DNA from: Candidatus Magasanikbacteria bacterium UBA922
GTDB lineage: Bacteria; Patescibacteriota; Patescibacteriia; Magasanikbacterales; UBA922
DNA length: 64,000 nt
NCBI GenBank assembly: GCA_002293825.1
Contig: DBDW01000002.1
Span: 18,059 to 82,058, forward strand
Direction: 5' to 3'
The notes under the pieces are model-generated. The model was given only the letters and a program-made list of their open reading frames with translations. It had not been told where the DNA came from and searched no databases. How positions within the stretch are numbered: position 1 is the first letter of the stretch; every line of letters begins with the position of its first letter. A program made the translations under genes and the position numbers. Positions 6,143 through 64,000 of the stretch are shown here, piece by piece.

Positions 6143-6203
6143 ATAGAATGAGCCGTATTGTACGGGAAAAGGGTTGAAGCGTCAAGTTGAAGAGGTGGAA
6201 AGT

Positions 6204-7025: not shown

Positions 7026-7026
7026 A

Positions 7027-7575: not shown

Positions 7576-7577
7576 AG

Positions 7578-13388: not shown

Positions 13389-13457
13389 TTATACACAGAA
13401 ACAGCTATATTATCAGGAGTCAATATCTCTCGTATCAATTCGTATAACACAGTTTTT

Positions 13458-39232: not shown

Positions 39233-39244
39233 AAGAACCTTAAC

Positions 39245-40351: not shown

Positions 40352-40358
40352 ATAATAA

Positions 40359-41204: not shown

Positions 41205-41212
41205 AATCAATA

Positions 41213-42271
41213 TTACTGCAACCATTGTCGCAATTCCTTCCAGGAAATTTTTCGCATCGCACGAACCTCTTTTCTTCGTTTTCGGTATAGTGACCTATTG
41301 CGCCACAGGACAGAAAATCCCGTAAGAACAGTGCGATCAAAAAGTGTAAAATAAGCCAATTTCTTTAACTCATACCATATAATCCACGGAAAATCAAGTA
41401 TGAAATTTTGCCAATACTCATTCTTATATATGGTAGCAAGATGATTTTTGTAACTATGAAATCGCACCCATTCAGACTGTTTCTTCTTATTCTGAACTGA
41501 AAAACGATCCCCCGCAAACTCGAACCCAGTAGCAGTACGATCATGATACGCAACTGAATTCAAAAGTACGTATGAATTGAATCCTGCAATCCGCAATCGG
41601 TACGCCAGATCAACATCTTCTTTATACGACTGGTATGATCCATCAAAAAATGTATTATCCGAAAATTGAACAGTTTCAAGTGCACTCCGTCGATACATAG
41701 GAAGTGCCCCTGATACACCAAAAACCTCTACAGCAGTATCCTGCACACGAAACGATAGCCCTACTTTCTTTTTTTTTTCTTCCCATATGTACCCAGCATA
41801 TTTATCAACCACGCGCCTATTGCGAAACACACGAAGACCAAGTGCGTCGACCATATCAGTAAAACTCGCTTCAAGTCCATACTCAATATCTGCAAAATTC
41901 CATCGCATCAATCGCGGACTTACCGAACCAACTTTCTCATGAGTATCCAAAAATTTAACCATTGTCTCAATACTATCAGGCATAAGATACATATCCTGAT
42001 TCAACAAGAGAACATACGGAGATCGTTCGATGTTATAGACCTCATTATGACCGCCAACAAATCCCACATTTTGTTCATTTTTCACAAGCGTATGAGTAAA
42101 TGATACACTCATCAGCTCCTTTTCGATCGCATCAGGAGTCCCATCAGTAGATCCATTATCAAATACATACAAATGAACATCTTGATACGTCTGTTTTCGA
42201 AGCGACTCAAAAAGATACGGAATATACTTTTTTCCGTTCCATGTCACAAGTTGTATAACTACGTTTGACAC
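41213..42271 (-). CDS. glycosyltransferase family 2
   Basis: LYVFDNGSTDGT…NVGFVGGHN. Contains a T10 homopolymer at 41769-41778 that encodes a Lys run. Confidence 0.65.
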   Translation of the reverse strand: MSNVVIQLVTWNGKKYIPYLFESLRKQTYQDVHLYVFDNGSTDGTPDAIEKELMSVSFTHTLVKNEQNVGFVGGHNEVYNIERSPYVLLLNQDMYLMPDSIETMVKFLDTHEKVGSVSPRLMRWNFADIEYGLEASFTDMVDALGLRVFRNRRVVDKYAGYIWEEKKKKVGLSFRVQDTAVEVFGVSGALPMYRRSALETVQFSDNTFFDGSYQSYKEDVDLAYRLRIAGFNSYVLLNSVAYHDRTATGFEFAGDRFSVQNKKKQSEWVRFHSYKNHLATIYKNEYWQNFILDFPWIIWYELKKLAYFTLFDRTVLTGFSVLWRNRSLYRKRRKEVRAMRKISWKELRQWLQ

Positions 42272-42288
42272 AATAATAATTAAAATTT

Positions 42289-43158
42289 CTAATTTCTAAT
42301 TTCTAATTTTGCATGTATCCTCTCCCCCGTCCACACAAGTCCAATTCCCACTGGTCGAAATAATGCAATCCATATCCATTTCCACCATGGTTCCCATTTC
42401 TTGAAGTAAATCAGCATGGACCCAGTAAACTGTCTCTGTTTCCATACTGTCGTACGTTTCTTGAAGCTCTGTCCGACATAATCAATCGCAGTAATAATAG
42501 GGGTATGCACTACTCGATACCCAAGTCGTTTCGCCTCGCGACAAATATCAACATCTTCATACCAAATAAAATACCGAGGATCCCACGCCCATCCCAGTTT
42601 TTCCACAAAATCTCTTCGCATAAGCATAAAAGAGCCTCGTACCGAATCTACGTCTTGCTCTATATCAAAATTAAACCCTTTCAGATGATACCGATCAAGT
42701 ATATGTGGAAACAAATGTGGTAGTTTGAGAATCAATGCAACCTGTTCCCACACTCTCGGGAATCTTCGTGGCGAAGCATTTTCATTGATAAAACCGTGTT
42801 CATCAACCAATTTTGGACTTGCAATTCCTACGTTTGAATTTCGATTCATCCAGTCGACCATGATATCAAGAGACCGAGGAGAAAGCTGCATATCCGGATT
42901 GAGAAATAGCAGATACTCCCCTTCCGAAATTGCAACCGCCTGATTATTGGCAGCACCAAATCCTTTATTTTCGATATTTGCAATTATGCGGACATCCGGA
43001 AACATCTCTCGAATAGCTTCGACCGTACCATCACTCGACGCATTGTCGACAATGATCTGCTCAATACGAATATCCTGTGCAGCATACCTAACTGACTCTA
43101 TCTGTTTCAAAATAAATTCTTTGCTGTTCCAGGTTACGGTGATGACCGATACATGCAT
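42289..43158 (-). CDS. glycosyltransferase family 2
   Basis: SVITVTWNS…VDNASSDGT…NKGFGAANN. Start trimmed to the internal MHVSV ATG. Confidence 0.65.
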   Translation of the reverse strand: MHVSVITVTWNSKEFILKQIESVRYAAQDIRIEQIIVDNASSDGTVEAIREMFPDVRIIANIENKGFGAANNQAVAISEGEYLLFLNPDMQLSPRSLDIMVDWMNRNSNVGIASPKLVDEHGFINENASPRRFPRVWEQVALILKLPHLFPHILDRYHLKGFNFDIEQDVDSVRGSFMLMRRDFVEKLGWAWDPRYFIWYEDVDICREAKRLGYRVVHTPIITAIDYVGQSFKKRTTVWKQRQFTGSMLIYFKKWEPWWKWIWIALFRPVGIGLVWTGERIHAKLEIRN

Positions 43159-43171
43159 ACGATCTTTCTCA

Positions 43172-44236
43172 TTACTTACCCATTTCCTTCTTAAAATAAT
43201 CAACAAACGGAATAGCGGTCGGATCAATCTTTTTGAGAAGCGCCGAATAATAGCTCACATAGCTGAAAAATACGAGACATTCGATCGCCTGGAACAACAC
43301 ATCGTTCTCTTTCGGAACAAATGTTTTATGCATAATTGAATTTTTCTGCAACACTTTCTTCGTTATGGCATATCGCTTTTGCGCGCGATCATGATACAAA
43401 CCTGATTCAATCATGACAAACAATACATTTTTAACATTCGATTTCGGGTAGAGCATTCCTTCCATAAGATGATGATTGAGTTCAGGTAGTGCAAAATACC
43501 CACCAAATCGCTTACCATTTTCATTCATTTGATTAGCAGCAACATGTGCATTCCCAAGCAAATGTTCACTTGCAACATACCAAACACTTCGATCAATTGT
43601 TTTTCGTGCCAATTGTTTTGCTGGATTTTCCAATTCAGGAGTCATAACTCCATACATCGTGTCATAGAGCGCGATCGCCTTAATTATTTCTTTAATCTGT
43701 TTTGATGAAATCTTGAATACACCGAGTTTTGAAAACAATATCAATTGTCCGACGATAGAATACCCGAGTCCCATCCGAGGCGATCCACAGGGATTATTCT
43801 CAGTGGTAAAAATCAATGCTGGATAGCCGTATTTCTGTGCGAATTCAGCAAGTGTGCCACCTGCACAAATGACTGCAATTTTCGCTTTCTTCTCTCGAGC
43901 TTTCTCGACGCAGGATACCACCTCTTCAGTCGTGCCCGAATAACTAGAACCAATAACCAAGGTCTTGGCATTCACATATCCTGGGAGATCGTATCCGTTC
44001 ACGATTTCAAGCGGATACTTAAGTTGTCGGTGATATAATGATTTGATGACATGCGTCCCGATCGAGGATCCGCCCATACCACACACCACGATCCGTTCAA
44101 TCTTCTTATAAGAAGATGGGGTACGCAGTTTTTCAGCGACCAAGGCGACTTCTTCAACTTGCTTGTACAACAACTGAAGACTTCCGAGCATATTATCCGA
44201 ATCATTTTTTTTGATAGTAATAAGAGAATCCAACAT
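43172..44236 (-). CDS. bifunctional phosphoglucose/phosphomannose isomerase (PGI/PMI, double-SIS)
   Basis: Two SIS motifs: IVVCGMGGSSIGTHV and VIGSSYSGTTEE. 354 aa. Confidence 0.7.
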   Translation of the reverse strand: MLDSLITIKKNDSDNMLGSLQLLYKQVEEVALVAEKLRTPSSYKKIERIVVCGMGGSSIGTHVIKSLYHRQLKYPLEIVNGYDLPGYVNAKTLVIGSSYSGTTEEVVSCVEKAREKKAKIAVICAGGTLAEFAQKYGYPALIFTTENNPCGSPRMGLGYSIVGQLILFSKLGVFKISSKQIKEIIKAIALYDTMYGVMTPELENPAKQLARKTIDRSVWYVASEHLLGNAHVAANQMNENGKRFGGYFALPELNHHLMEGMLYPKSNVKNVLFVMIESGLYHDRAQKRYAITKKVLQKNSIMHKTFVPKENDVLFQAIECLVFFSYVSYYSALLKKIDPTAIPFVDYFKKEMGK

Positions 44237-44286
44237 ACAAATAGATTAAATACATACATGAATCGTAGCAAATACCAGAGCATTTG

Positions 44287-44325
44287 TAAAACAAAAAAGC
44301 CCTTAAACTAAAGGCTTTTTTGAAA
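44287..44325. repeat. direct repeat A: terminator-like hairpin (A-run/stem/T-run) copy 1
   Basis: Sequence taaaacaaaaaagcccttaaactaaaggcttttttgaaac is nearly identical to copy B at 45141-45178 (one substitution plus A/T-run length differences). Confidence 0.7.
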
Positions 44326-44327
44326 CT

Positions 44328-44351
44328 GCCCCACCGTACGACTGGTGGGGC
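44328..44351 (-). terminator. GC-rich hairpin immediately 3' of the GC-rich NUDIX gene
   Basis: gccccacc-gtacgact-ggtggggc. Confidence 0.45.
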
Positions 44352-44388
44352 ACCTACACTGCGATAGATGTAGTAAACATCCTCGTTT

Positions 44389-45039
44389 TTACCGAGAAAG
44401 AGTACCAAACATACCACGCAGACCGAGGTACACGCACGCGGAATGCACATACCCATCATCGATCTCTCCAGCGAGGATCATGGTATGAACCTCTTCGGGT
44501 GAGAAAAACTCGGCATGCCGAATTCCCTCGTGCTCGTTGTTCTCGTGCTCCACGCGGCAGCCCGCTTTCGCGAGATAGAGCGGGATTGGACGTGGAATAT
44601 ACGAGGAATTACCGTGATAGTAACCGAGAAGATCGGGAGATGTGAGGACACATCCCAACTCCTCACTGCCTTCACGGATCGCCGTCTGATCAAGAGTTTC
44701 ACCCGGATCAGCAAGACCGCGCGGCAATTCCCACCGCCAGCGACCGAGCTCACTCAGACTGACGCGCCTCGGCGACACCCGCATCTCGGTAACCGGACGC
44801 CAGATGTGCACAAGTCCGAGATGTCCCCGATCGTCGAGAGCAGCGACTGCAGCAGCCGGAGGATTGTCGACGATCCAGAGATCGTAGAGACTCTTCCCGT
44901 CTTCCTGCGCCACTGCCCGTACAATCCGGGCAAACCCGTCTTGACTGAGCACAACATCGCTTTCCGATGAAGCAATCCACTTGGGACGAAAACCCTCTGC
45001 AAGTGCTTGTGACAAAGGAACAAAAGAATATCTACCCAT
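44389..45039 (-). CDS. NUDIX hydrolase encoded by a GC-rich (~55-60% GC) gene, likely horizontally acquired
   Basis: Nudix box ELPRGLADPGETLDQTAIREGSEELG. Arg/Ala/Gly-rich composition contrasts with neighbouring genes. Start trimmed to MGRYSF. Confidence 0.65.
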   Translation of the reverse strand: MGRYSFVPLSQALAEGFRPKWIASSESDVVLSQDGFARIVRAVAQEDGKSLYDLWIVDNPPAAAVAALDDRGHLGLVHIWRPVTEMRVSPRRVSLSELGRWRWELPRGLADPGETLDQTAIREGSEELGCVLTSPDLLGYYHGNSSYIPRPIPLYLAKAGCRVEHENNEHEGIRHAEFFSPEEVHTMILAGEIDDGYVHSACVYLGLRGMFGTLSR

Positions 45040-45140
45040 TGTAATCCCCTTTTCTTTTTTGCACACCGCGGGCAAAGAACCAAGCCTGTCTCCGAAATGT
45101 TCAGAGAGCACCTAAACCTAGCACATACATATGTTTTTGT

Positions 45141-45178
45141 CAAAACAAAAAGCCCTTACACTAAAGGCTTTTTGAACA
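45141..45178. repeat. direct repeat B: terminator-like hairpin copy 2 (functions as the rmlD terminator)
   Basis: Sequence caaaacaaaaagcccttacactaaaggctttttgaaca, 10 nt downstream of the rmlD stop. Confidence 0.7.
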
Positions 45179-45192
45179 GTCACATTGTTGAG

Positions 45193-46041
45193 TTATACCG
45201 TATTATTTTTTACTTTCGCATACTTCTCCATCGTATCTCTAAGTGCTATTTTTATGTCTCTCATCTCAATTCCTATTTCCTGAAGACGCGTAGATCGCAT
45301 AAAATTGTTTGAACGTTTTTTCTTTGCCAATCCTTGTAATACCAAATCTTCTTCGCTAATCCACTCATTATGATGACTTGGATCAACAAGTTCCGTATAC
45401 AGTGAAATAATTTCTTTATGACGAATTGTACCAGGATTGGTGCAATGAAAAATTCCCACACCTTTTTTCTGCATGAGTTGATAGCACGCACTGAGTAAAT
45501 CAGAAACCACCGTGACACTATTCTCCACATCTACAACCTTTGGATACGTAGTTATCTTATCAATCAAATTCGCAGGACAAGGACGATCATCAATGGGCAT
45601 ACGTAATCGAGCAATTCCAACATTTGGTAATGTAGAAAGCACTAAATCAGCAGCATATTTACTCTTACTGTAGACTGCCACAGGATTGCCATAGTCCGCT
45701 TCTGTCCACACCCCATCTTCATGAGGTGAGCGCCCATAAAAGATACACCCTGTTGCCAAATGAAGCAGATATATCCCTGCCTCCTGAGCAGCTTGTGCGA
45801 TTTGGATAGGTAGTACGGTATTACCAAAAATAGTTTCAAGCTGATGTGTTTCACACCAATCAACATTGGGTTTTCCAGTAACACCGGCAGCATTAAATAT
45901 GGAATCTGGACGATATTCACGTATAAGTGTTCGCACATCTTCAATGCTCTCAATACGAGTCGTAGAGAGTATTGCATCATCCCCCCACACTTCTTTCGCA
46001 CGAGAACCAATATATCCATTTCCAAGAATAAGAATCCTCAT
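45193..46041 (-). CDS. rmlD: dTDP-4-dehydrorhamnose reductase (RmlD-like short-chain epimerase/reductase)
   Basis: MRILILGNGYIGS…, an SDR/NAD-dependent epimerase fold, with rmlB adjacent. Confidence 0.7.
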   Translation of the reverse strand: MRILILGNGYIGSRAKEVWGDDAILSTTRIESIEDVRTLIREYRPDSIFNAAGVTGKPNVDWCETHQLETIFGNTVLPIQIAQAAQEAGIYLLHLATGCIFYGRSPHEDGVWTEADYGNPVAVYSKSKYAADLVLSTLPNVGIARLRMPIDDRPCPANLIDKITTYPKVVDVENSVTVVSDLLSACYQLMQKKGVGIFHCTNPGTIRHKEIISLYTELVDPSHHNEWISEEDLVLQGLAKKKRSNNFMRSTRLQEIGIEMRDIKIALRDTMEKYAKVKNNTV

Positions 46042-46050
46042 AAAAAATAA

Positions 46051-47055
46051 TTAACGAATTACATACTGTTTTTCATAATACTCTTGATACGTACCACTCC
46101 TAGAACGCTCTACCCATTCCTGATTATCGAGATACCACTGCACCATTTTTTTCAGACCTTCTTCAAACTTGATTTGTGGTTCCCATCCTAACTCATTTTT
46201 TGCTTTAGTAAAATCAATCGCATATCGACGATCGTGCCCTGGACGATCTTTCACATATTCAATATATGACTCGTCTTTGTGCATGTATTGTAATAATAAT
46301 TTTACCACATCAATATTCGCCATCTCACAATTTCCTCCAAGACAATACGTTTCTCCAATCGTCCCATTATTCACAATAAATTCAACACCACGAGAATGAT
46401 CATCCACGTGAATCCAATCACGTACATAGAGTCCGTCTCCGTACACCGGTACTTTTTTATCCTCCATCAGATTCGAAATACATAATGGTATAAACTTTTC
46501 CGGAAACATATATGGACCATAATTATTCGAACAATTCGAAATGGTCATCTGAATTCCAAACGTGTGATAATACGCACGTACCATATGATCCGAAGCAGCT
46601 TTCGATGCAGAATACGGACTTCGAGGATCATATGGCGTATGTTCCGTAAAAGGAGCATCACCAAATTTCAAAGCACCAAACACCTCGTCAGTAGAAATAT
46701 GATGAAAACGTTTTTGATATTCTTTTACTGCATCAAGAATATGTTGTGTCCCAATAACATTTGTTTTGATAAAAACATTAGGATCCATAATCGATCGATC
46801 CACATGGGTCTCTGCTGCAAAATGTACCACCACATCCACATCCTTAACTATCTCAAATACCATATCTCGATCACACACATCTCCTTTTACAAATGTATAT
46901 CGAGAATCATGCATAACATCTATAAGATTCTCCAAATTTCCAGCATACGTAAGCACATCAAAATTGACGATTGAATCGTTCGGATGCTTCAAAAGCCAAT
47001 AACGGATAAAATTTGAACCAATAAATCCAGCACCTCCGGTTACCATTAATTTCAT
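46051..47055 (-). CDS. rmlB: dTDP-glucose 4,6-dehydratase
   Basis: MKLMVTGGAGFIGSNF…HFAAETHVDRS…YSASKAASDHMVRAY is the RmlB signature. Confidence 0.9.
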   Translation of the reverse strand: MKLMVTGGAGFIGSNFIRYWLLKHPNDSIVNFDVLTYAGNLENLIDVMHDSRYTFVKGDVCDRDMVFEIVKDVDVVVHFAAETHVDRSIMDPNVFIKTNVIGTQHILDAVKEYQKRFHHISTDEVFGALKFGDAPFTEHTPYDPRSPYSASKAASDHMVRAYYHTFGIQMTISNCSNNYGPYMFPEKFIPLCISNLMEDKKVPVYGDGLYVRDWIHVDDHSRGVEFIVNNGTIGETYCLGGNCEMANIDVVKLLLQYMHKDESYIEYVKDRPGHDRRYAIDFTKAKNELGWEPQIKFEEGLKKMVQWYLDNQEWVERSRSGTYQEYYEKQYVIR

Positions 47056-48155: not shown

Positions 48156-49847
48156 TTATTTTTTCAAACTCACCTCTCTCAGCTCAAGGTTATCCCATCC
48201 AACACGAACTACACCCAGCACAAGCTCTTCACGATCTAACACTTGCTCAACAACATCTCTCTCTTCACCACCTAATTTTAGGTCATACCACCAGACAGGC
48301 ACACCGCTCTCCAATAGGTTTTTTACAGCACGAGCCCATACTTCTTCTTCGGTCCTGATTAACACCTTTCTTCCAGGAAATACATACTTGTCACCAAAAC
48401 GAGTAAGTACAACACTATGCATCGGAACGTGTGTGTAAATCTCTCGCTGCTTCTCTTGATTTTCAATCAACGTATTTCTGACCGTAGAAAGACCTTCGGG
48501 AAGAGACAAAAAAACATCACGATACGAAAAAAACAATAGTATTGAAAATAGTACAGTAGTCATCAATATTTGTTTTTTTATAGAAAAAACATGGAGTAAA
48601 CGGTCAAAACAGTATGCAAGTGGAACAATCATACCTACATAAACCGGCATAAAATAACGTGTCTGCGAGCTACCTATGGAAGGTATTCCTAGAAGATTAT
48701 CAGTAAAATTCCACGAACCATACCAGCAGACAAGATATACACTGACCGCACCATACACAAAAACATAATTACGTATCACACTCTGTCCACGTAACAAAAT
48801 AAAAATACATGAAACAACAAGTAGCGCCGACCACAAATTAAATAAAAGAACAAAGTAGTGATACACCGTCTTTAAAATCGCGAAGCTATGAAAACCAAAG
48901 GGAAAGAAAAAAGCTCGAAAAAAAGAAACTCCTTGCCCGCCATCAAATATACTTCCTGCAAAACCACTTGCTACAGGCTTTACATATCCACTCGCAAAAG
49001 GACTACCATAAAACGCATCCTGTGTAACAAAAAATAATAATGCAACGAGAAACACTGTTCCACCCCCTACCACGAATTGTCGTCGGGAAACATGTGCCCT
49101 AATGAGATAAAGTAAATATGAATATAATCCAAGCACCCACAAAAGTTCAGTAGGTCGAATCGCCAGTGCACATGCGATTCCGAACGCACTAAGAAAGGTA
49201 AAACATATTTTTTTACGACTATCGTGCGATGCATCAAACATTCGTACAATCCCGTATATACTAAGAATAAGAAAAAATATAAACGGAACCACATGTTGAA
49301 ACGGACGACCGGACCAATACCACCACGACGGTATCAAAAAAAATAAAAATGAGCTAATAAACGCCATCCGAACATTCCACACTCTTCTCACAATTCCATA
49401 TAATAAAAAATTTGAAGCAATCGCGAGGAGAGGCACAAAACTAATCACCACTATATTAAAAATACTCGCACCAAAAAACGTAACTGGCAAAAACACAAAA
49501 GCAGAAATTAATACAATAAAAAATGGAAATCCAATCGGTTCGAGACGTCCATTAATGACAGTCATGCTACGCGCATGCACCTGATCAAACGCGCGATCAT
49601 TCAAAGATTCATACCACCCAAAAGAATGATTAAATACCAATTCCTTGATAAAAAAATAATTTGCCATTTCATCTGGCTGGTTAGAAATTATAGTGTGAAA
49701 ATTACGAGTATTCAGATCTCCGAATGACTCAATTGCATGCAGATACAGATACGAACAAAAAAATAGCACGGACAGTATACCTAACACATATTTCCCTTTC
49801 ATCTTTTCGAAAACACAAGACAAAGATGTAAGAACAGACATAGTCAA
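48156..49847 (-). CDS. GT-C-fold membrane glycosyltransferase (PMT/ArnT-like, GT39/GT83 type)
   Basis: About 12 TM helices. The first extracytoplasmic loop carries a DE motif (…NQPDEMANYF…). C-terminal soluble domain present. Confidence 0.5.
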   Translation of the reverse strand: MTMSVLTSLSCVFEKMKGKYVLGILSVLFFCSYLYLHAIESFGDLNTRNFHTIISNQPDEMANYFFIKELVFNHSFGWYESLNDRAFDQVHARSMTVINGRLEPIGFPFFIVLISAFVFLPVTFFGASIFNIVVISFVPLLAIASNFLLYGIVRRVWNVRMAFISSFLFFLIPSWWYWSGRPFQHVVPFIFFLILSIYGIVRMFDASHDSRKKICFTFLSAFGIACALAIRPTELLWVLGLYSYLLYLIRAHVSRRQFVVGGGTVFLVALLFFVTQDAFYGSPFASGYVKPVASGFAGSIFDGGQGVSFFRAFFFPFGFHSFAILKTVYHYFVLLFNLWSALLVVSCIFILLRGQSVIRNYVFVYGAVSVYLVCWYGSWNFTDNLLGIPSIGSSQTRYFMPVYVGMIVPLAYCFDRLLHVFSIKKQILMTTVLFSILLFFSYRDVFLSLPEGLSTVRNTLIENQEKQREIYTHVPMHSVVLTRFGDKYVFPGRKVLIRTEEEVWARAVKNLLESGVPVWWYDLKLGGEERDVVEQVLDREELVLGVVRVGWDNLELREVSLKK

Positions 49848-49856: not shown

Positions 49857-50480
49857 TTAAAGTCCGTGTTTAAATAAGCTTAAAACTGCAAAGCCAATCG
49901 CAACTCCGAGAATTCCACTCGCAACTAACAAAAGAATTGGCACATCTAATACAAGTGCAATCATAATCGAACACATGGCAAGTACTTGTAAAAACATCTT
50001 TATTTTCCCCCACCGATTTGCCATCCGCACCGTCTTGAATTTGATTCGTGCAATCAATGCAGATACAATAAAAATTACTTCAATACCCAATGTTGCGATA
50101 CCGAGCCACGGATTTAGTTCACGAAACACAAGTAACAGTACCAATGAACCGACCAAAAATTTATCAGCCAAAGGATCAAGTAACATTCCAAATTTGGTAA
50201 TCTTATTCTGGGTACGAGCTAGCGAACCATCAAGCGCATCGGTAAATGCCGTACACAAAAAAGCAATAATGCCAATTATATAAAAGCCATTAAGTACCAA
50301 ATAAAATACAATCGGCGTAGCACCAACACGAAACATCGTAATACGATTAGGTGTTACCCACTCAGGGAAAATCCTGAGAATAGTGCGTGCAAAAAAATGG
50401 TCGTGCGGATGCACCTCTTCTGAAGGTAGATACACAAATAAATCACCATTCTGTTCTTTGAAACGTTTGATAAATCCCAT
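49857..50480 (-). CDS. CDP-alcohol phosphatidyltransferase family protein
   Basis: Motif DALDGSLAR…GMLLDPLADK = D(x)2DG(x)2AR…G(x)3D(x)3D. Start trimmed to MGFIK to avoid overlap with the divergent 50506 gene. A longer start (up to 50744) cannot be excluded. Confidence 0.65.
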   Translation of the reverse strand: MGFIKRFKEQNGDLFVYLPSEEVHPHDHFFARTILRIFPEWVTPNRITMFRVGATPIVFYLVLNGFYIIGIIAFLCTAFTDALDGSLARTQNKITKFGMLLDPLADKFLVGSLVLLLVFRELNPWLGIATLGIEVIFIVSALIARIKFKTVRMANRWGKIKMFLQVLAMCSIMIALVLDVPILLLVASGILGVAIGFAVLSLFKHGL

Positions 50481-50505
50481 AAAATTAGATAGACTGCTTA
50501 CCAGT

Positions 50506-52635
50506 ATGATAGCCAATATAAGCCAAAAATTCAATCTCCAGACTACCACACTCCTCGTATCCCTATGCACCATACTGCTCGAAGTATTTTTTTTCAACAT
50601 TCCCGTGCTCTCGACACCTGCAGTACTGTTGTACATTCTACTCATCGGAAAATCTATCGGAGAACGCTTTTTTGACACATCTGGACTCCAGTGGTGGGGC
50701 GGAATCGCACTCCTACTCTCTTCGGTTTCACTCATCGGAGTCATTATCTACTACCCCTACAAACTCACCCCTGAATTTTCAGTAATAACCATTGCGGCAC
50801 CACTTCTATATTTATTAAAAAAGAAAAAGAAAACAAAAATTGAGGAAAAGCCTATAGAAACATCACTCAATACACCTACAAAATTGGGCATGATAATTTT
50901 TTTAACACTTGAAATCATACTCGTGTGTACAATTATCAGTGCACGCTCGGGAGAACTGATGCGCTCACCATGGATCGCATTCGACGCATGGTTTTTTATC
51001 CTCTTTGCACTCGCCTCAAGTGTATTATTTTTTTTAATGACCCAAAAAACGAATACAAAATTCTTGATTATTAGTGCAATTTTACATCATTTCATTTTTT
51101 ACAGTATTGCAGCTATTGTCTACAAAATAGGTTTCGGATTCGATGGATTCATACACCGCGCAACCGAATCATGGATTTTAGAACATGGATTTATCACACC
51201 CAAAGAGCCATTTTATATTGGCCAATACGGATTAGTTGTAACATTTTCACGAATCACCGGCATTGCAATCGCATATATCGACATATTCCTAATTCCTGCA
51301 CTAGCAGCACTCTCAATTCCCACACTCATCCATCATGTTTTTAAAAACACCTGGAACACTACCACGAAAAACCTCGGATTAGTCCTCTCATTTGTAATTC
51401 CTTTTATATTTTTCTTTTCATTTAATCTCACTACCCCACACAATCTCACTCTTCTACTCCTCATACTAGGGATGATAAGTGTGGTGGGATATACAAGAAA
51501 AAAAATCCCCTACATTCTTCCCGCACTTATCGGACTCACCGCTCTCGGAACACACCCACTCTTAGGGGTTCCCACAATCATCATCGTACTAGTCGCAGGA
51601 ATAGTAGAAAAAACGTTGAAAAAAAATGTAAAAATTCTGACATACACAATGATGTTTGTAGCACTTTCGGTATTACCACTACTCATGTTCATGATGCAAC
51701 AATGGTTCAATGGACACGGACTCCCTACACTAGTAAATCCATTTTCAAATAGCGCACTATTTCTTGATTTTTTCAAACGTCCATTTTGGTACAAAGCAGA
51801 CGCTGTGTGGTACTTCGAAATTATATATGCATGGCAATATATGATTACCCCCATACTTCTCATCTGCGCAGGAATCGGCTTCTGGCTTCAAAAAAAGACC
51901 ACTATTGCATGGGTCTCTCTCATCTCAAGCGTGGGATTATGTATCGGTGCTTTTTTACTTCGTACACTAATCACCTTCCCCAACGTAGCATCATCAGAAC
52001 AAGGAAATTATCCATTACGACTATTGATCGGATCTGTGGCCACACTATTACCACTCGTGCTATATGGCATATATCATACAGGTAAAGCAAAAACATATTT
52101 CATACAGACAAAATTACGCATACCCACGACCATCTATTATGCCGCGGGATCACTCATCATTGGAGCACTGCTTATGTTATCATTGTACTTTTCATACCCA
52201 CAATACAATGAAAAAGTATTTTTTCCTGGGTTGAATGTAAGTGAATATGATCAAAAAGTAGTACGCTGGATCCACGAACAAAACGAGACTTATGACTATG
52301 TTGTACTCTCAACCATTCTCACGGCAGTAGCTGCATTGACAGAACATCCATTTGCATCATATATCGACACCGTGTACGGACCTCAATTTTATTATTCAAT
52401 CCCCTCGGGTGGACCATTATACCTCGCCTACGAAGAAATGGTATATCAAGGACAAAAACGAGAAACAATTGATCGTATATTTGAATTAACTAATGTGAAT
52501 ACTATCTATCTGGTGGTACCATGGTACTGGGCACGAATTGATGAAATTGTAGAAGGCGCAAAAAAAAGTGCCGATTCATGGCACTCAATTGATCATAAAA
52601 TGTGGATTTTTAAATACCTCAAACACGATAATTAG
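50506..52635 (+). CDS. large polytopic membrane protein, possible GT-C-like transferase/polymerase
   Basis: About 709 aa with ≥14 hydrophobic helices and a C-terminal soluble domain. No WWDYG (STT3) motif. The ORF track starts at a GTG at 50383; the first ATG at 50506 is used here. Confidence 0.4.
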   Translation: MIANISQKFNLQTTTLLVSLCTILLEVFFFNIPVLSTPAVLLYILLIGKSIGERFFDTSGLQWWGGIALLLSSVSLIGVIIYYPYKLTPEFSVITIAAPLLYLLKKKKKTKIEEKPIETSLNTPTKLGMIIFLTLEIILVCTIISARSGELMRSPWIAFDAWFFILFALASSVLFFLMTQKTNTKFLIISAILHHFIFYSIAAIVYKIGFGFDGFIHRATESWILEHGFITPKEPFYIGQYGLVVTFSRITGIAIAYIDIFLIPALAALSIPTLIHHVFKNTWNTTTKNLGLVLSFVIPFIFFFSFNLTTPHNLTLLLLILGMISVVGYTRKKIPYILPALIGLTALGTHPLLGVPTIIIVLVAGIVEKTLKKNVKILTYTMMFVALSVLPLLMFMMQQWFNGHGLPTLVNPFSNSALFLDFFKRPFWYKADAVWYFEIIYAWQYMITPILLICAGIGFWLQKKTTIAWVSLISSVGLCIGAFLLRTLITFPNVASSEQGNYPLRLLIGSVATLLPLVLYGIYHTGKAKTYFIQTKLRIPTTIYYAAGSLIIGALLMLSLYFSYPQYNEKVFFPGLNVSEYDQKVVRWIHEQNETYDYVVLSTILTAVAALTEHPFASYIDTVYGPQFYYSIPSGGPLYLAYEEMVYQGQKRETIDRIFELTNVNTIYLVVPWYWARIDEIVEGAKKSADSWHSIDHKMWIFKYLKHDN

Positions 52636-58024: not shown

Positions 58025-58522
58025 TCAGGGTATTTGCGTGATTACAGTCCCAATACCAATTCCGAGCTCCCCTGCCCTTCCTGCAGGCAATTCTAGGACT
58101 GTATTAGCCTCTGCACGGGGCCGATAAACACGAAGTGCGGTATCAGGTACACCTGGCTCAAGCGGCACATACTCTGCTAAATCGACCACCACACCATCCC
58201 GAAGCCAGATAATATCAATTGAAAAGCGCATATCCCGCATAACAAATCCGTGACGTGCATAAGTCAAAAATGGAAATATCATACCATCATAAGGTGCAAT
58301 AGTATCACGATTACCCAGCCCTCGATATTGTTGCTGAATCGTCTTGGCAACCAAAACCTCAATCGTTTTACCCTCGACCTCAAGCGTTACCTTGGGCCAA
58401 TACACTTTATTCCATACAAACAGGCAAGCTGCAACACCAAGAAACACTACTACCCACCACATGCGTACACGCTTCGTATGTTCAGATTTCTTTTTTTCAA
58501 AATCCATAGAGGATAAATACAA
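58025..58522 (-). CDS. DUF192 (COG1430) domain protein with N-terminal TM anchor
   Basis: …TIQQQYRGLGNRDTIAPYDGMIFPF…HGFVMRDMRFSIDIIWL… is the DUF192 core. Confidence 0.6.
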   Translation of the reverse strand: MYLSSMDFEKKKSEHTKRVRMWWVVVFLGVAACLFVWNKVYWPKVTLEVEGKTIEVLVAKTIQQQYRGLGNRDTIAPYDGMIFPFLTYARHGFVMRDMRFSIDIIWLRDGVVVDLAEYVPLEPGVPDTALRVYRPRAEANTVLELPAGRAGELGIGIGTVITQIP

Positions 58523-58525: not shown

Positions 58526-59596
58526 TCATGATGAAGTGTGATCTTTCTTTGAAAGCCACAATCCAATCAACAACATAAGTACAAAAATAAATAACAACGC
58601 AATAAGTTGATGCTCTGCCTGAATAAATAAAGCAGTCATGCCAAACAACAATGAAATTGCATATAGCAATAATACCGCCTGTCGATGACTCAGTCCAGAC
58701 TCAATCAATCGATAGTGCAAATGTTCACGATCACCAATATAAACCGGTCGTTTCTTGATCACACGCATCACCATAACACGCACTACATCAATCATGGGAA
58801 TACCTATTACCATAAACGTAATCGCTATTTTACTCTTCGAGATTATCGCGAGACTCCCCAAAATAAATCCAGTCATAAGACTTCCACCTTCTCCTAAAAA
58901 TATTTTTGCGGGATTAAAATTCCATACCAAAAACCCAAGCAATGTACCTGCAAATATCAATGAAAGGAGCGCAACATTCGGATCAGACCATTGTGGCTGA
59001 ATAGAAACTGCATAAATTACAAATGCGGCAATTGTGACAATCCCCGAAACCAATCCATCAAGTCCATCTAGAAATTTGGTAGTAAACATCATACCAAAAA
59101 GCCACAAAAAGACGAGTGCATCAGCAAAAAGTACGATGTGTATTGCCGGCTCAATCATAATGGTAATATGGGTCAAATCAACCACTCCTCCAAACGGACT
59201 ACTGAATACCCCCGGAGCATTACCCAACACAACCATAACAACACTCGCAAGAATAGGTGCAATGATCTGATATCTCGGACGAAGAGTAAATTTATCATCA
59301 AGAATACCCCCAATCATGAGAAATAGAGAGCCCAAGCTTAATCCCACTAACGTCATTGAATTAAACGTGGTTCGAAATTCTCCATGAGAAAGCCAGACAA
59401 TTCCCGCGATACCAAAAAATACAGTATATACCGCAAGTCCTCCGCCAAGCGGAGTAGATCGTGTATGAATCTTGCGAGAACGCGCACCTGGTGCCCGATC
59501 AATTACACCATATCGTCGCATCAATATAGCCACGAGCCCCGTCACAATCACCGAACACACGAAAGCAATGGTAAAATAAATTCCGTATTCCAACAT
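58526..59596 (-). CDS. WecA/TagO-like UDP-HexNAc:polyprenyl-phosphate HexNAc-1-phosphate transferase (GT4 MraY/WecA family paralogue)
   Basis: Motifs DGLDGLVSGI and VGIPMIDVVRVMVMR. 10-11 TM helices. Second member of this family in the window, after mraY. Confidence 0.7.
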   Translation of the reverse strand: MLEYGIYFTIAFVCSVIVTGLVAILMRRYGVIDRAPGARSRKIHTRSTPLGGGLAVYTVFFGIAGIVWLSHGEFRTTFNSMTLVGLSLGSLFLMIGGILDDKFTLRPRYQIIAPILASVVMVVLGNAPGVFSSPFGGVVDLTHITIMIEPAIHIVLFADALVFLWLFGMMFTTKFLDGLDGLVSGIVTIAAFVIYAVSIQPQWSDPNVALLSLIFAGTLLGFLVWNFNPAKIFLGEGGSLMTGFILGSLAIISKSKIAITFMVIGIPMIDVVRVMVMRVIKKRPVYIGDREHLHYRLIESGLSHRQAVLLLYAISLLFGMTALFIQAEHQLIALLFIFVLMLLIGLWLSKKDHTSS

Positions 59597-59603
59597 ACTA
59601 TAA

Positions 59604-62372
59604 TTACATTCTAGATCGCTCAACACGAAGCGTAATACCTGGACCAAGCACAACTACATCTCTGCGACGTAATTCGCCCTTGAGCACCAAATTCGCAAGT
59701 TCATTTTCTACTCGATCCTGAATTGCGCGACGCATGGGTCGAGCACCAAAATCTGGATCAAAGCCTACTCGAGCCAATTCTTCTAATGCAGCATCTTCAA
59801 CTGTAAACCCAACCCCTTTTACCTCCAAATCTTGTGCAACCTGTTTCAACATAAGTCCTGCGATTTGTTTAATTTCAGAATTTTGAAGTGGTTTAAAGAG
59901 CACAATTCCATCAAAACGATTCAAAAATTCAGGACGATAGTAATTTTTGAGCTCGCCACGAATAAGTTCATCACGAATAGACCCAAGCTCAATACCCTGC
60001 TTCAAACGATCAGCAACATAGCTGGTACCCGCATTTGACGTTGCGATAATAATAGTATTGGTAAAATCTACCACCCGACCAGTACTATCAGTCAACCTAC
60101 CATCATCAAGTACTTGTAAAAACAAATTCAAAATATTACTATCAGCTTTTTCAAGTTCATCAAGAAGAACAAGAGAAAAGGGATGCTGTCGTACAGCTTC
60201 AGTCAAAATACCTGACCCTTGTATTCCAGGCTGGCCAATCAATCGATAAATCGCACTTGTATCCTGATATTCACTCATATCAATTCTAATCATACGATTT
60301 TCACCACCAAAATACACACGCGCAATCGTCTTTGCTAATTCAGTCTTACCGACACCAGTAGGTCCGAGAAATAAAAAGCTTGCAATCGGACGATTGTCAG
60401 AACGTATTTCAGCACGAGCTCGACGAAGTGCATTTGCCACCAATACCACCGCCTCACTCTGTCCGATAACCTGAGTATGCATCTCTTCTTCTAATTTTAA
60501 TAATTTTTCAGATTCAGAAGCTGTAATTGATGCCACTGGCACTCCTGTCTTCTCTGCAACTACAGTACCCACATCATCGGCCGATACTAATGTATGCTCA
60601 CCATGAGCACTTCGAGCATAACTACCAGCCTCGCTCATGAGTGCAAGTGCGCTTTGTGGTAAATTTTGATCAGTAAAAAACTTATGTGCAAGAATTACAC
60701 TCTTTTCAAGTGCATCATAAGAAAAAAACACGCGCGTTTGATATTCAATCGTACCTGCTTTTGACTCAAGCACTCGAATCGCCTGATTAATATCCATCTC
60801 ACGAATATCAATTTTTGAAAACACCGTCCCAATCTCAGAATGCGAAATTGTGCGCGCATACACATCAGGTAGCGTGGTAGCAAACATGACAAATCGCTGA
60901 CTTCTGAGATACTCAGCAAGAGATTCAGACACGTCCAACCCCTGCCCCTGTGCATCAGACACACCCATGAGATCATGAATATTATCAATAAAAAGTATAA
61001 TATTTCGAGCTCGAGTAACCTCATTCATAATACGAATCAAACGTTCCTGAGCTCCTGCAGCAGTAGTACCAGCAAGAAGTGATGTCGTAGAAATTTGCAC
61101 CATCCGCTTATCCTGCAATAATTTTGGTACATCTCCCCTAATCATACGTTCTACAAGACCCTGCACAATTGTCATTTTTCCCACACCATGATCCCCCACC
61201 AACATGATGTTACGCCCACCACCTTCGATAATGCGCAAAATTTCATCAATTTCCTGATCTCGAGCTACACACGTATCGATATCTCCATATTTTGCAGCAA
61301 TCGTAAGATCACGACTAAGCTGATTGAGTGCAGGAGTAGCTACCGCAGTCATTGCACGATCCATCCCATGTTTGGAAATTCCTGCTGCAGCACGTGCAAA
61401 AACATGATATTTTTCATACAATGTTTCCCGAATACGAGCCCATTCTATAACATTATCAAGTTTTACTTTATCGACCTCAAGGTCATAAAGCATTTCTTGT
61501 AACACTTCACTATGCTCGACCGTCGCTTTCAGAAAAGTGGTTGCCCGAATTAATGGATCACGATTGTTTCGAGTAATAAAATATGCACGAAAAACAACAT
61601 CTTCAGCGTCAGGAGCAAAAATAGGAGAAAATCGTTTTGGCGACTTATCTCCAAACAATTTTGCAATATGCGCCTGAAGTGCGCCAGCCTGAATTCGCAA
61701 TCTAACACAAATATTGCGCACACTATCTTCTGACAAAAGTGTATATGCGATATGTAGTGCAGTGACATGCGTATGCCCATATGCACGCGCAAGTTCAAAA
61801 CTTTTTTGTATCACTCGTTCAGACTCATGAGACAGGTATTTCGACATGTCAAGATATCGAGAACGACGCATATTTCTCACCTCTTCCCAGGTCGTCGGAG
61901 CAGAAGATACCGTATCAAGAACATTCTTCGAAAGAGGTATCCCATGATATAAAAAACGAATATGAGGAGTTCTCCCTCGAACAATTCGATACCACACATA
62001 CATAAGTCCTAAAAAACCAAGCCACACAAATGCTCGATAGGCATTCCCTGCAGTAGGACCAAACCAAAAAAGTAATGACAACAAATCTTCACTATGTCCC
62101 GCCCGATATGCATAATAAAAAAACCACCCAAAAAGAGCACCTGAACCAGTGAGTGCACCAACAATACGTAGCACATTCAATATTTTTCGACCTTTTCGTA
62201 ATTTGATTGCGTATTCAGTGTACTGCTCACCAAAATACACAAACGTCTCACGATCCAAAACACCCTGAATCATGCCCTGACACTGAGGACATACACGCCC
62301 TTTTTCCTTCCCTGTTCCCTGACACAGGGTACACACGAGAACAGGCAACGATGAAACTTTGGAAAAAAGCAT
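59604..62372 (-). CDS. ClpB/ClpC-like double-AAA+ chaperone with N-terminal DnaJ-type zinc finger and two TM helices
   Basis: N-terminus CTLCQGTGKEKGRVCPQCQG (two CxxCxG repeats), then hydrophobic segments (LRIVGALTGSGALFGWFFYYAY; FVWLGFLGLMYVWYRIV). Clp-N repeat present. AAA-1 Walker A GDHGVGKMT. AAA-2 Walker A GPTGVGKTELAK, followed by sensor regions. Confidence 0.75.
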   Translation of the reverse strand: MLFSKVSSLPVLVCTLCQGTGKEKGRVCPQCQGMIQGVLDRETFVYFGEQYTEYAIKLRKGRKILNVLRIVGALTGSGALFGWFFYYAYRAGHSEDLLSLLFWFGPTAGNAYRAFVWLGFLGLMYVWYRIVRGRTPHIRFLYHGIPLSKNVLDTVSSAPTTWEEVRNMRRSRYLDMSKYLSHESERVIQKSFELARAYGHTHVTALHIAYTLLSEDSVRNICVRLRIQAGALQAHIAKLFGDKSPKRFSPIFAPDAEDVVFRAYFITRNNRDPLIRATTFLKATVEHSEVLQEMLYDLEVDKVKLDNVIEWARIRETLYEKYHVFARAAAGISKHGMDRAMTAVATPALNQLSRDLTIAAKYGDIDTCVARDQEIDEILRIIEGGGRNIMLVGDHGVGKMTIVQGLVERMIRGDVPKLLQDKRMVQISTTSLLAGTTAAGAQERLIRIMNEVTRARNIILFIDNIHDLMGVSDAQGQGLDVSESLAEYLRSQRFVMFATTLPDVYARTISHSEIGTVFSKIDIREMDINQAIRVLESKAGTIEYQTRVFFSYDALEKSVILAHKFFTDQNLPQSALALMSEAGSYARSAHGEHTLVSADDVGTVVAEKTGVPVASITASESEKLLKLEEEMHTQVIGQSEAVVLVANALRRARAEIRSDNRPIASFLFLGPTGVGKTELAKTIARVYFGGENRMIRIDMSEYQDTSAIYRLIGQPGIQGSGILTEAVRQHPFSLVLLDELEKADSNILNLFLQVLDDGRLTDSTGRVVDFTNTIIIATSNAGTSYVADRLKQGIELGSIRDELIRGELKNYYRPEFLNRFDGIVLFKPLQNSEIKQIAGLMLKQVAQDLEVKGVGFTVEDAALEELARVGFDPDFGARPMRRAIQDRVENELANLVLKGELRRRDVVVLGPGITLRVERSRM

Positions 62373-62378
62373 ACGAAA

Positions 62379-62729
62379 CTAAAATGAATAAATCAGTGTA
62401 TATATAATAAAAATTGGAAGAACGATCCATAACAAAAAAGTAACACAGGAAACAATTACCCAACACAACAAAAAAACTGACCGCACACACACATTGACCA
62501 GACGTACAAAAAAACTCACCAATCTTCCCTGCCAATCATACTGCCCAAACATGGGAACAAAAATATGTGCAATCCATACTCCCGGTGCAAATTGCGCATT
62601 CCCTGCTGCAATCATACGTGCAGAAAAACGCCCAGCTCTCACAATCCCTGCGGTATACCACCATAGTGGCGCGTATATAAAATCAAAAAGAAATTCAAGT
62701 ACTAAGCGCTGTAAAATTAAAATCCACAT
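62379..62729 (-). CDS. small polytopic membrane protein (hypothetical)
   Basis: 116 aa with 3 hydrophobic helices, 6 nt upstream of the Clp-like gene. Confidence 0.4.
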   Translation of the reverse strand: MWILILQRLVLEFLFDFIYAPLWWYTAGIVRAGRFSARMIAAGNAQFAPGVWIAHIFVPMFGQYDWQGRLVSFFVRLVNVCVRSVFLLCWVIVSCVTFLLWIVLPIFIIYTLIYSF

Positions 62730-62830
62730 ACAAAAAATAATTTATACCAGTATATCACAAAATATGTAGAAATAACGAATACTAACAATACGTCACGTAT
62801 AACAAAAAACTCCCTAGTAAGGGAGTCGTA

Positions 62831-63175
62831 TTATCGCTTTGCTACAATATCACCCGCAAGAACGGCATAGTGAGGGTTCGAGACAGGTTCGTACTGAAAT
62901 TCATTCAATCGTTCGCGGACAGTCTTGATAGAGGTATGACGTGCAATTTCGACATCCAGACTTCGAGTTTCACGTTCGAGTTGTGTCAATTTTTTCTCAT
63001 AATCAGAAATCACATATCCTTTTGCAGAAACGGTGTTAACTTGCCACATATACAAAATACCAACCACAAACATGAGCACCGACAACATACTTCGGAATGT
63101 TCTTCCAAGAATAATTTTCCTAATATGCTCTCGTTTATCTTTCAGTGTTGTTTTTTTTCGTGCGTATGCGTTCAT
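62831..63175 (-). CDS. ftsL: FtsL-like cell-division protein (single TM + coiled coil)
   Basis: 114 aa. Basic N-terminus, one TM helix (MLSVLMFVVGILYMW), a coiled coil, and a position immediately downstream of rsmH, as in dcw clusters. Confidence 0.55.
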   Translation of the reverse strand: MNAYARKKTTLKDKREHIRKIILGRTFRSMLSVLMFVVGILYMWQVNTVSAKGYVISDYEKKLTQLERETRSLDVEIARHTSIKTVRERLNEFQYEPVSNPHYAVLAGDIVAKR

Positions 63176-64000
63176 ACTTTTTTTAAAATACGTAACTTTG
63201 CCGATCGCGCTCGAGGATTGTCTCTATATTCACGCTCACTCGCCACAATCGGTTTTTTGGTGAGAATAATAAATGCTGTACCTGCGTGTTTTTTAAAATA
63301 ATGTTTGACAATACGATCTTCAAGTGAGTGAAATGTGATAACTGCAAGCACTCCACCTGGAGCCAAGAGTCGAAGCGCTTGTGGGAGTACACGCTCGATC
63401 GTACCCAATTCATCATTGACTGCGATTCTAAGTGCTTGAAAAACTTTTGTGGCGGGATGCAATCCTCCTACCCATGGTATTTCCTTGTCAGTCTTGAGCT
63501 TGGTGCGATACGTTTTGAGTACTACCTCGACTAACTGCCCTACCGTCGTAAGTGCTGTTTCTTTTCGCGCGACAGACAATGCATATGCAATCTCACTCGA
63601 CAATCTTTCTTCACCATACACACGAAATATGTCTTCAAGCTCCTCGACAGAGGACTCTGCAATCAATTCTGCGGCAGTTCGTCTAGAAGAATCATTGATA
63701 CCCCCATACCGCATATCTAAAATCTCATCTGGATTCTGAAAACTGAATCCACGTTTTCGCTCCTCGAATTGTGGTGTAGACCATCCAAAATCCATCAAAA
63801 TTCCATCAACAGGACCAAATGAATGAGCTGCAACAATAGACTCGAGATGCTCAAAATTCTCTCGTGCATATATCACCGCATCAGCATATGTATGAAGGAA
63901 ATGCTTCGCACGAAGTAGTGCCTCAGGATCAGCATCAATACCAAGGAGAAGACCACCAGGAGTAATCCGCTCCAAAATCGCCTCACTATGCCCACCATCT
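63172..64000 (-). CDS. rsmH: 16S rRNA (cytosine1402-N4)-methyltransferase RsmH/MraW, 3' portion (N-terminus beyond window end)
   Basis: RsmH C-terminal and core motifs present (…GGLLLGIDADPEAL…, ITFHSLEDRIVK…). The reading frame is open to the window edge. Confidence 0.85.
   Translation of the reverse strand, partial: DGGHSEAILERITPGGLLLGIDADPEALLRAKHFLHTYADAVIYARENFEHLESIVAAHSFGPVDGILMDFGWSTPQFEERKRGFSFQNPDEILDMRYGGINDSSRRTAAELIAESSVEELEDIFRVYGEERLSSEIAYALSVARKETALTTVGQLVEVVLKTYRTKLKTDKEIPWVGGLHPATKVFQALRIAVNDELGTIERVLPQALRLLAPGGVLAVITFHSLEDRIVKHYFKKHAGTAFIILTKKPIVASEREYRDNPRARSAKLRILKKV

Follow-up and report, generated by a model that had tools for sequence, protein, structure and literature searches.

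A predicted membrane-anchored Clp/Hsp100-type ATPase and its candidate small membrane partner in Candidatus Magasanikbacteria

Clp/Hsp100 proteins are known from textbooks as soluble ATPases that thread polypeptides by means of tyrosine loops. ClpE of Firmicutes is soluble as well; an N-terminal zinc finger replaces its Clp N-domain, and it has a short M-domain, a ClpP loop and active rings. FtsH, Msp1 and Bcs1 are membrane-anchored proteins of the classical AAA clade, not of Hsp100, and in FtsH a peptidase domain is present along with an aromatic pore loop. In a review, Clp/Hsp100 proteins were described as having conserved aromatic pore loops on which their processive unfolding critically depends, and the Torsins as Clp-related, membrane-associated proteins that have no aromatic pore loops and rely on membrane cofactors (PMC5425593). 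In this study, we analysed a Clp/Hsp100 gene and the small membrane-protein gene directly upstream of it in 64,000 nucleotides of Candidatus Magasanikbacteria bacterium UBA922 (GenBank assembly GCA_002293825.1, contig DBDW01000002.1, positions 18,059 to 82,058), a stretch that is called the window below. The pair belongs to a large conserved clade of different make-up, in which the Clp protein is predicted to be fixed in the membrane, to have a single working ring, and to have both gripping loops swapped for conserved polar ones. Full-text literature searches turned up neither a described membrane-anchored bacterial Hsp100 nor any account of this family among Clp proteins of Magasanikbacteria, Patescibacteria or the candidate phyla radiation (CPR).

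The reading that we favour, tentatively and with a little less than even confidence, is that the two genes encode a membrane-tethered ATPase derived from Hsp100 and a dedicated small partner, and that the ATPase is probably not a canonical polypeptide-threading unfoldase. An initial annotation, made from the letters of the sequence, had placed the two open reading frames (ORFs) 6 nt apart, and both were found there (gap 62373-62378). The pair and the regions of the Clp protein are as follows.

59604..62372, minus strand: Clp/Hsp100 gene, 922 aa, ATG start
62379..62729, minus strand: small membrane-protein gene (partner), 116 aa, ATG start
62232..62339, minus strand: single C4 zinc knuckle, Clp residues 12-47 (C14, C17, C28, C31), small beta structure
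61974..62183, minus strand: predicted transmembrane hairpin, Clp residues 64-133, with TM1 at ~64-88, an outer loop, and TM2 at ~113-133 (TM, transmembrane helix)
61383..61889, minus strand: helical Clp N-domain, Clp residues 162-330, joined to the hairpin by the linker 134-161
60603..61334, minus strand: degenerate first AAA+ module (D1), Clp residues 347-590, Walker A at 393-401 and Walker B at 459-464
59607..60602, minus strand: second AAA+ module (D2) with its small domain, Clp residues 591-922, catalytic motifs intact

The Clp body was described by alignment to the solved structures of ClpA, ClpB and ClpC and by column counts over the 120 orthologues listed from a full-length search (51-100% identical, 878-937 aa). 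More than 100 orthologues share 52-85% identity with the window protein. The domain layout of class I Clp/Hsp100 proteins was found: tandem AAA+ modules, AAA_lid_9 (Pfam, 1.2e-06), AAA_2 (PF07724, 1.6e-51) and ClpB_D2-small (1.4e-22), together with full-length alignment to the ClpA, ClpB and ClpC structures. As for Escherichia coli ClpA, a single alignment (residues 180-901 against ClpA 2-725) covered the N-domain, D1, D2 and the D2-small domain without any M-domain. This alignment begins at residue 180, within the Clp N-domain; Pfam Clp_N is recorded in precomputed hits and scored below threshold for the window protein (16.9 against 20.7 bits). The order of a Clp-N region and two AAA+ modules, which the initial annotation had read, was thereby borne out. 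The best-scoring D2 similarity was to Thermus thermophilus ClpB (427 bits). In contrast to this general likeness, the scores against the NCBIfam equivalogs ClpB, ClpA, ClpK, ClpG and ClpV reached only about half of the cut-offs (ClpA, TIGR02639, 474.7 bits against 993.15; ClpB, TIGR03346, 530.9 bits against 1232.1). Judged by its sequence, the protein is clearly derived from Hsp100, and its combination of features fits no named subfamily.

D1 is predicted to be catalytically dead throughout the family. It keeps the P-loop lysine in a variant Walker A, GDHGVGKMT (393-401), for which the family pattern is G-x-x-G-V-G-K-M-[ST] with methionine at the Thr/Ser position in 98 of the 120 orthologues. 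In Walker B (ILFIDN, 459-464), the Asp-Glu pair is changed to [N/K/D]-N: the glutamate position is asparagine in 112/120, and the aspartate position holds N in 55, K in 28 and D in 20 of the 120. Both arginine fingers are also gone, the window protein having EIGTVF (513-518) and the family E-[IL]-G-[TS]-[VA]-[FL] where ClpC has ERRF; the finger positions hold glycine (105 of 120) and T/S/K. The initial annotation had correctly picked out the Walker A variant and had missed the losses in Walker B and of the arginine fingers, as well as the altered pore loops of both rings. ClpB differs in having the D1 Walker B acids and the D1 arginines, and the latter are reported to be essential for ClpB oligomerisation and activity (PMC4239642).

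D2, on the other hand, is catalytically intact, judging from its motifs, and no other region of the protein varies so little: its mean pairwise difference was 0.31, compared with 0.42 in D1 and 0.68 in the hairpin. Walker A (GPTGVGKTE), Walker B (LLDE; LLDELEKA in the window protein) and the GAR of the sensor-2 motif GARP were each present in 120/120 orthologues, and the arginine-finger motif GR showed R759 in 120/120 and R766 in 103/120.

The pore loops of both rings are replaced. In D1, AGxKYRGEFE has become AGTT[VA]SGAQE (AGTTAAGAQ, 434-442, in the window protein); in D2, GAPPGYVGYEEGG has become GQPGQQGTG, four residues shorter than in ClpB and ClpC (window protein GQPGIQGSG, 713-721). No aromatic pore-1 residue, whether of the KYR type in D1 or of the GYVG type in D2, was found in either ring of the 120 orthologues, and within the Magasanikbacteria-type clade both polar loops show strong conservation. 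These loops bear directly on the main rival of the reading that we favour, namely a genuine membrane unfoldase, disaggregase or extractase, which would pull membrane or secretory proteins that are mis-inserted or aggregated through its pore by means of non-canonical loops, the knuckle and N-domain serving to capture unfolded clients. Conservation of the loops within the clade speaks for such an activity, as do the full double-ring architecture of an Hsp100, the intact and highly conserved D2 motor and the presence of a Clp N-domain; genes for SecA and SecD also lie in the window, but not beside the pair. A puller of this kind would nevertheless have to work without an aromatic loop residue in either ring, with a shortened D2 loop, and with a dead D1 that has lost the arginine fingers reported to be needed for ClpB activity (PMC4239642); moreover, conservation of the loops does not extend to the wider membrane-anchored clade. 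The initial annotation had proposed a disaggregase or unfoldase acting at the membrane, and in that form the proposal is unsupported, given the dead D1, the missing aromatic loops and a subfamily without D2 that is described below. We regard an unfoldase as rather unlikely, while ranking it above the other alternatives.

An M-domain was not found: residues 404-464 of ClpC and 395-512 of T. thermophilus ClpB were unmatched, and the query is continuous at residues 587-589. Unlike ClpB, in which a coiled-coil M-domain couples the protein to Hsp70, the window protein would thus have no ClpB-type site for Hsp70 coupling, a further point against disaggregation in cooperation with Hsp70. Nor was a ClpP-docking tripeptide of the form [ILV]G[FL] found between TSNAG and RPEF in the 120 orthologues; the corresponding region aligned to ClpB without gaps and was six residues shorter than in ClpC with its VGF loop. 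Both of these absences had been noted in the initial annotation and are upheld. As for ClpB, the gapless region suggests independence from ClpP.

Public records name the Clp protein "ClpC", "ClpA", "AAA family ATPase" or "hypothetical", and several of them carry the title "ATP-dependent Clp protease ATP-binding subunit ClpC/ClpA". An ATPase partner of ClpP would agree with these names and with the ClpA-like layout lacking an M-domain. However, ClpA has an IGL loop for ClpP, tyrosines in its pore loops and an active D1, none of which was seen here, and the scores lie far under the cut-offs for ClpA and every other equivalog; in addition, the window protein has a zinc knuckle, a transmembrane hairpin and a membrane partner that ClpA lacks. 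A ClpP partner is therefore very improbable, and it was rejected on the absence of the docking loop.

The N-terminal module sets the protein apart from soluble Clp proteins. The two CxxCxG repeats read in the initial annotation are indeed present, as CTLCQGTG (residues 14-21) and CPQCQG (28-33), and the pattern across orthologues is CxxCxGxG, six to seven residues, and CxxCxG. The four cysteines are conserved in 95-101/120 orthologues, and 65 of the 73 complete genes taken from genome loci have them as well; this conservation suggests that the knuckle binds zinc. The remaining 8/73 complete genes have no knuckle and retain the hairpin, so that the knuckle appears to be dispensable. The spacing and glycine pattern resemble those of the DnaJ cysteine-rich domain and of anti-TRAP, whereas DnaJ has four repeats and two zinc centres and the window protein has two repeats and one centre. 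With residues 1-63 as the query, Pfam DnaJ_CXXCXGXG (PF00684) gave 19.3 bits against a cut-off of 32.7, at profile positions 1-28 of 65; DZR_2, anti-TRAP and BSD2_CRD also matched below their cut-offs, and among PDB sequences anti-TRAP was best (E 0.03) and DnaJ reached E 1.6. The likeness to DnaJ claimed in the initial annotation thus stands at the level of the motif, and membership of the DnaJ domain family is not supported.

This resemblance is a point in favour of an unfoldase: the zinc-finger-like domain of DnaJ is said to bind denatured proteins (Szabo et al. 1996, cited in PMC12634643). The orthologues without a knuckle count on the opposite side.

ClpE provides another comparison, being an Hsp100 with a C4 zinc motif at its extreme N-terminus. 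Its D2 similarity to the window protein was E 1e-114 (PDB chain 29hb), the better of the two matched stretches listed. In the window protein, the knuckle is instead of the CxxCxGxG type, is followed by a hairpin and a Clp N-domain, and is accompanied by neither an M-domain nor a ClpP loop.

Behind the knuckle, a juxtamembrane motif, F-L-Y-[FW]-G-E-P-L-T-x-Y-H-I-x-L-R-[KR]-x-R-R, is conserved at residues 44-63, before the hairpin, and the outer loop of the hairpin contains a near-invariant F102-W103. The two transmembrane helices that had been expected from the sequence were recovered in the topology check, with family-mean hydropathy maxima near residues 78 and 120. AlphaFold2 modelled the Clp protein with a mean predicted local distance difference test (pLDDT) score of 83: residues 12-47 form a small beta structure, helices span 53-90 and 113-133, and a disordered linker (134-161) then leads to the helical N-domain (162-330), behind which D1 and D2 follow. 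The N-flank of the first helix carries a charge of +3.8 and the connecting loop one of -1.2; hence, by the positive-inside rule, the predicted topology is an N-in/C-in hairpin, with the zinc knuckle and the entire Clp body in the cytoplasm. FtsH, Msp1 and Bcs1 likewise hold an AAA+ ring at the cytoplasmic membrane face by an N-terminal transmembrane anchor. FtsH differs from the window protein in having a single AAA module and an M41 peptidase; here the modules are of the Hsp100 type, and a Pfam scan found no peptidase domain in the Clp protein.

It might be argued that the N-terminal extension is a gene-calling artefact and that the real protein is a soluble Clp ATPase with a downstream start. 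In-frame ATG codons do occur at residues 124, 168 and 176, and a few database entries (~880-890 aa) are called from an internal methionine. The conserved Met-Leu-Phe start, with M1 and F3 each in 108/120 orthologues, speaks strongly against this, as do the four cysteines, the juxtamembrane motif and both hydrophobic helices, which are kept at 50-60% overall identity, and the tight stop-to-start spacing with the upstream gene. The same N-terminal features persist even in relatives only 24-31% identical to the N-terminal module of the window protein. The initial annotation had taken poor conservation of the cysteines and helices as the sign of an artefact; both were conserved in more than 100 orthologues, and the extension is considered genuine. 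The artefact is hardly credible, and we rejected it on the conservation of the N-terminus.

Subsequently, we turn to the small membrane protein. The neighbourhood was counted over the best 80 loci of the partner, some counts being made on subsets of 66 or 73. The Clp gene lay directly downstream of the partner gene on the same strand in 80/80 loci, mostly at a spacing of -14 to +12 nt, and the pair was also retained in the loci L003, L005, L087 and L091. In L087, the two genes overlap by 4 nt and the partner was recognised by its hidden Markov model (HMM) at E 2e-43, while the N-terminal module of the Clp protein is only ~24% identical. The partner is encoded in at least 574 species-representative genomes. 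Because of the constant adjacency, the close spacing and the pairing kept in distant relatives, the view that the small protein is a dedicated partner is supported, in agreement with the suggestion of the initial annotation. A defence-system reading was set aside, since the pair occupies a fixed housekeeping position in hundreds of genomes.

The partner is hydrophobic at about residues 1-25 and 85-115, with a positively charged centre between them (net charge +1.9 at residues 26-48 and +3.0 at 66-84). This centre contains an invariant or near-invariant P-x-WWY motif and a NIFVPMFGQYDWQGR loop. Over 39 diverse members, P21, W23, W24, G28, W52, P59, M60, G62, D65, G68, S72, R76, R83 and P105 were invariant. 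The AlphaFold2 model is confident (pLDDT 93.9) and shows three helices (2-25, 27-47 and 49-54), after which residues 55-65 form a loop bearing PMFGQYDWQGR and residues 66-115 a long helix. These data suggest two membrane-spanning ends with a cytoplasmic middle; the protein had been called a three-helix membrane protein, and its membrane nature holds, with two spanning segments and not three. Profile searches found no relative in Pfam, NCBIfam or PDB sequences, and a Foldseek search of the model against the PDB returned only chance helical matches (best E 2.9).

The wider clade was examined with the N-terminal 179 aa as the query of an exhaustive HMMER scan against 1.84 billion representatives, which matched only 61 proteins. 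A few unrelated proteins were matched solely through true DnaJ-type repeats. Distant relatives of 888-932 aa have the same architecture, with a D1 Walker B that is mostly E-N and with short, variable and mostly non-aromatic D2 loops (GRNKEAG, GSPEGVAG, GDHDGASG, GEGANPG); as an exception, P0268 has a longer D2 loop containing a tyrosine. A tight group of 588-631 aa (P0256, P0263, P0265, P0266, P0277, P0279 and P0301, and loci L088 4808-6619 and L089 358-2169) shares the zinc knuckle, transmembrane hairpin and Clp N-domain, and ends after a degenerate D1 in a common ...VPYTKILK tail, without D2. The 603-aa form lies at the genomic position of the 922-aa form, directly before GT4 (the transferase gene described below) and L21, with recR/ybaB nearby and a signal peptidase gene upstream; the partner gene was not detected in its locus. 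From its sequence, the 588-631-aa form looks like a membrane-anchored pseudo-ATPase. Since it holds the same genomic position, the N-terminal module, N-domain and D1 must, as far as their sequences indicate, have a function that is independent of ATP hydrolysis. The loss of D2 at this position speaks against an unfoldase.

Another possibility is that the protein acts mainly as a structural scaffold, or as a factor in the assembly of a division or envelope complex, in which D2 turnover would, in a Torsin-like manner, only time assembly and disassembly without mechanical work on clients. The persistence of a dead-ATPase form in other lineages and the Torsin precedent (PMC5425593) favour such a role, and so does the position of the locus, which follows mraZ, rsmH and the ftsL-like gene, with rsmH upstream in 70/73 loci. 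In the 900-aa forms, however, D2 is the most conserved part and all of its catalytic residues are invariant, suggesting an enzymatic demand; besides, no division protein is adjacent, and in the window a terminator stands between the pair and the ftsL-like gene. A scaffold is thus distinctly unlikely, and appreciably less probable than an unfoldase.

The features around the pair in the window are as follows.

63172-63975, minus strand: rsmH, upstream context
62831-63175, minus strand: FtsL-like gene, upstream context
62808..62827, minus strand: terminator-like hairpin, 8-bp stem then a T run, between the FtsL-like gene and the small gene
62749..62759, minus strand: possible extended -10 promoter element TGTGATATACT, 20 nt before the ATG of the small gene
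58526..59596, minus strand: WecA/MraY-superfamily polyprenyl-phosphate sugar-phosphate transferase (GT4 gene), PF00953, closest to WecA
58025..58522, minus strand: DUF192 protein gene, last gene of the likely operon

Because the terminator-like hairpin (62827-62808) stands between the FtsL-like gene and the small one, a separate transcription unit would begin there. The -10 element TGTGATATACT was read by eye from the sequence, and a consensus scan gave no two-hexamer match at that place. The L21 gene after DUF192 has its own promoter-like site (57979-57951) and its own terminator (57574-57548). Hence the transcription unit is likely to consist of the small gene, Clp, GT4 and DUF192. For GT4, the start at MLEYG (59596; 356 aa, the call of the Joint Genome Institute, JGI), 7 nt past the Clp stop codon, is more likely than the TTG at 59653 that opens the longest ORF (58526-59653) and overlaps the 3' end of Clp by 50 nt. 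An identical locus on a JGI contig reads mraZ, rsmH, FtsL-like, small gene, Clp, PF00953 glycosyl transferase, DUF192 and L21, with recR and ybaB further along on the opposite strand; mraZ, which lies past the end of the window, is present there.

The transferase matched PF00953 at 1.5e-27, above the cut-off. Its equivalog scores were 77.8 bits for WecA and 61.7 bits for MraY, both far below the cut-offs, with WecA closer; MraY was not among the other window genes scanned. GT4 lay within 3 kb downstream of Clp in 58/66 loci and was adjacent in 46, and it also neighbours the D2-less Clp form. In L078 (~4333-7881), a single contig of a metagenome-assembled genome (MAG), Clp and GT4 are fused in frame into a protein of 1234 aa from which the first TM helix of GT4 is absent. 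This fusion would be topologically coherent, the cytoplasmic C-terminus of Clp joining a predicted cytoplasmic loop of GT4.

On the reading of a tethered ATPase with a dedicated partner, the protein would be ring-forming, as are other Hsp100s, with its ring on the cytoplasmic side of the membrane. D1 would serve as a nucleotide-binding, non-hydrolysing assembly ring, comparable to the non-hydrolysing rings contained in NSF and PEX1/6. ATP hydrolysis by D2 would drive conformational switching or cycles of assembly and not processive pulling, while the cytoplasmic loop and TM helices of the partner may dock on the hairpin and juxtamembrane region. The target would be a membrane-associated step of envelope synthesis or division, most plausibly one that involves the WecA-like enzyme, whose gene is probably co-transcribed. 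The complex as a whole is thus pictured as independent of ClpP, driven by D2 alone and probably tied to envelope synthesis.

In functional logic, the closest analogue appears to be the Torsins with LAP1/LULL1, which are related to Clp/Hsp100, associate with membranes, lack aromatic pore loops and use membrane-anchored cofactors (PMC5425593); homology is through the general Clp/Hsp100 relationship only. Torsins have a single AAA+ module in the lumen of the endoplasmic reticulum and receive an arginine finger from the cofactor. In the window protein, by contrast, D2 has retained both sensor-2 and an arginine finger of its own, while the 116-aa partner is helical and has no AAA+ fold.

Several observations weigh against the interpretation that we favour. 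In small, streamlined genomes, genes can stay in the same order even when they are not functionally linked. The mirror-tree distance correlation between the partner and regions of Clp was highest for the hairpin (r 0.71, partial 0.49), yet the partial values of 0.40-0.46 for D1, D2, the N-domain and GT4 are only marginally lower, so that the hairpin is not singled out. The Clp-GT4 fusion can be taken as a lead, though not as evidence, as it comes from a single MAG contig and a second case was not found in the metagenome contig scan. The polar pore loops are strongly conserved in the clade, which implies that the pore has some role; one particular substrate might still be moved by loops that lack aromatic residues, and the window protein has an isoleucine at a position that may align with the D2 tyrosine. 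Finally, by analogy, the Clp N-domain and the DnaJ-like knuckle correspond to substrate-binding modules of true unfoldases and chaperones.

A more far-reaching proposal is that CPR bacteria have turned an Hsp100 double ring into a non-threading, membrane-embedded, ATP-driven device with a new partner and conserved polar pore loops, a device that controls or services the WecA-like lipid-carrier glycosyl-phosphate transferase or another step of envelope synthesis or division. We consider this proposal improbable as a whole. If true, it would amount to a previously undescribed functional class of Clp/Hsp100 and could explain the regulation of envelope synthesis in minimal cells. Should the protein still unfold clients, the requirement for aromatic pore loops would be challenged; should it not, it would be a bacterial counterpart of the Torsin problem, that is, of the role of a Clp-like ATPase without pore loops at a membrane. 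The conserved linkage to a WecA-like gene offers a clue to how uncultivated CPR bacteria build their envelope, and the simple two-gene system is open to expression and study.

Other observations were made in the window and in related records. SecA and SecD, encoded in the window at positions not adjacent to the Clp pair, have been mentioned above; a 690-aa SecD/SecF-type protein (4070-6142, minus strand) has two PpiC-type rotamase matches between its SecD P1 subdomains, an unusual joining of a translocon accessory protein with a foldase. Four long ORFs had no Pfam match at E 1e-5: 50383-52635 (plus strand, 750 aa), 48156-49847 (minus, 563 aa), 1426-2862 (minus, 478 aa) and 13311-14684 (plus, 457 aa). 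The first of these, overlapped at either end by ORFs on the minus strand, may be spurious. Many MAG records with a Magasanikbacteria-type locus are titled "uncultured Gammaproteobacteria bacterium" and one "Udaeobacter", and "Kapabacteria" occurs once among the names of the matched proteins; these titles appear to be placeholders or mislabels, the gene content being CPR-like. The window also contains a MurA-type gene (35373-36674), an S41 peptidase gene (33976-35244) and a run of surface-glycan genes (38147-47055, minus strand) that encode a nucleotidyl transferase, four GT2 glycosyltransferases, a SIS protein similar to phosphoglucose isomerase, an RmlD-like protein and a dTDP-glucose-dehydratase-like protein.

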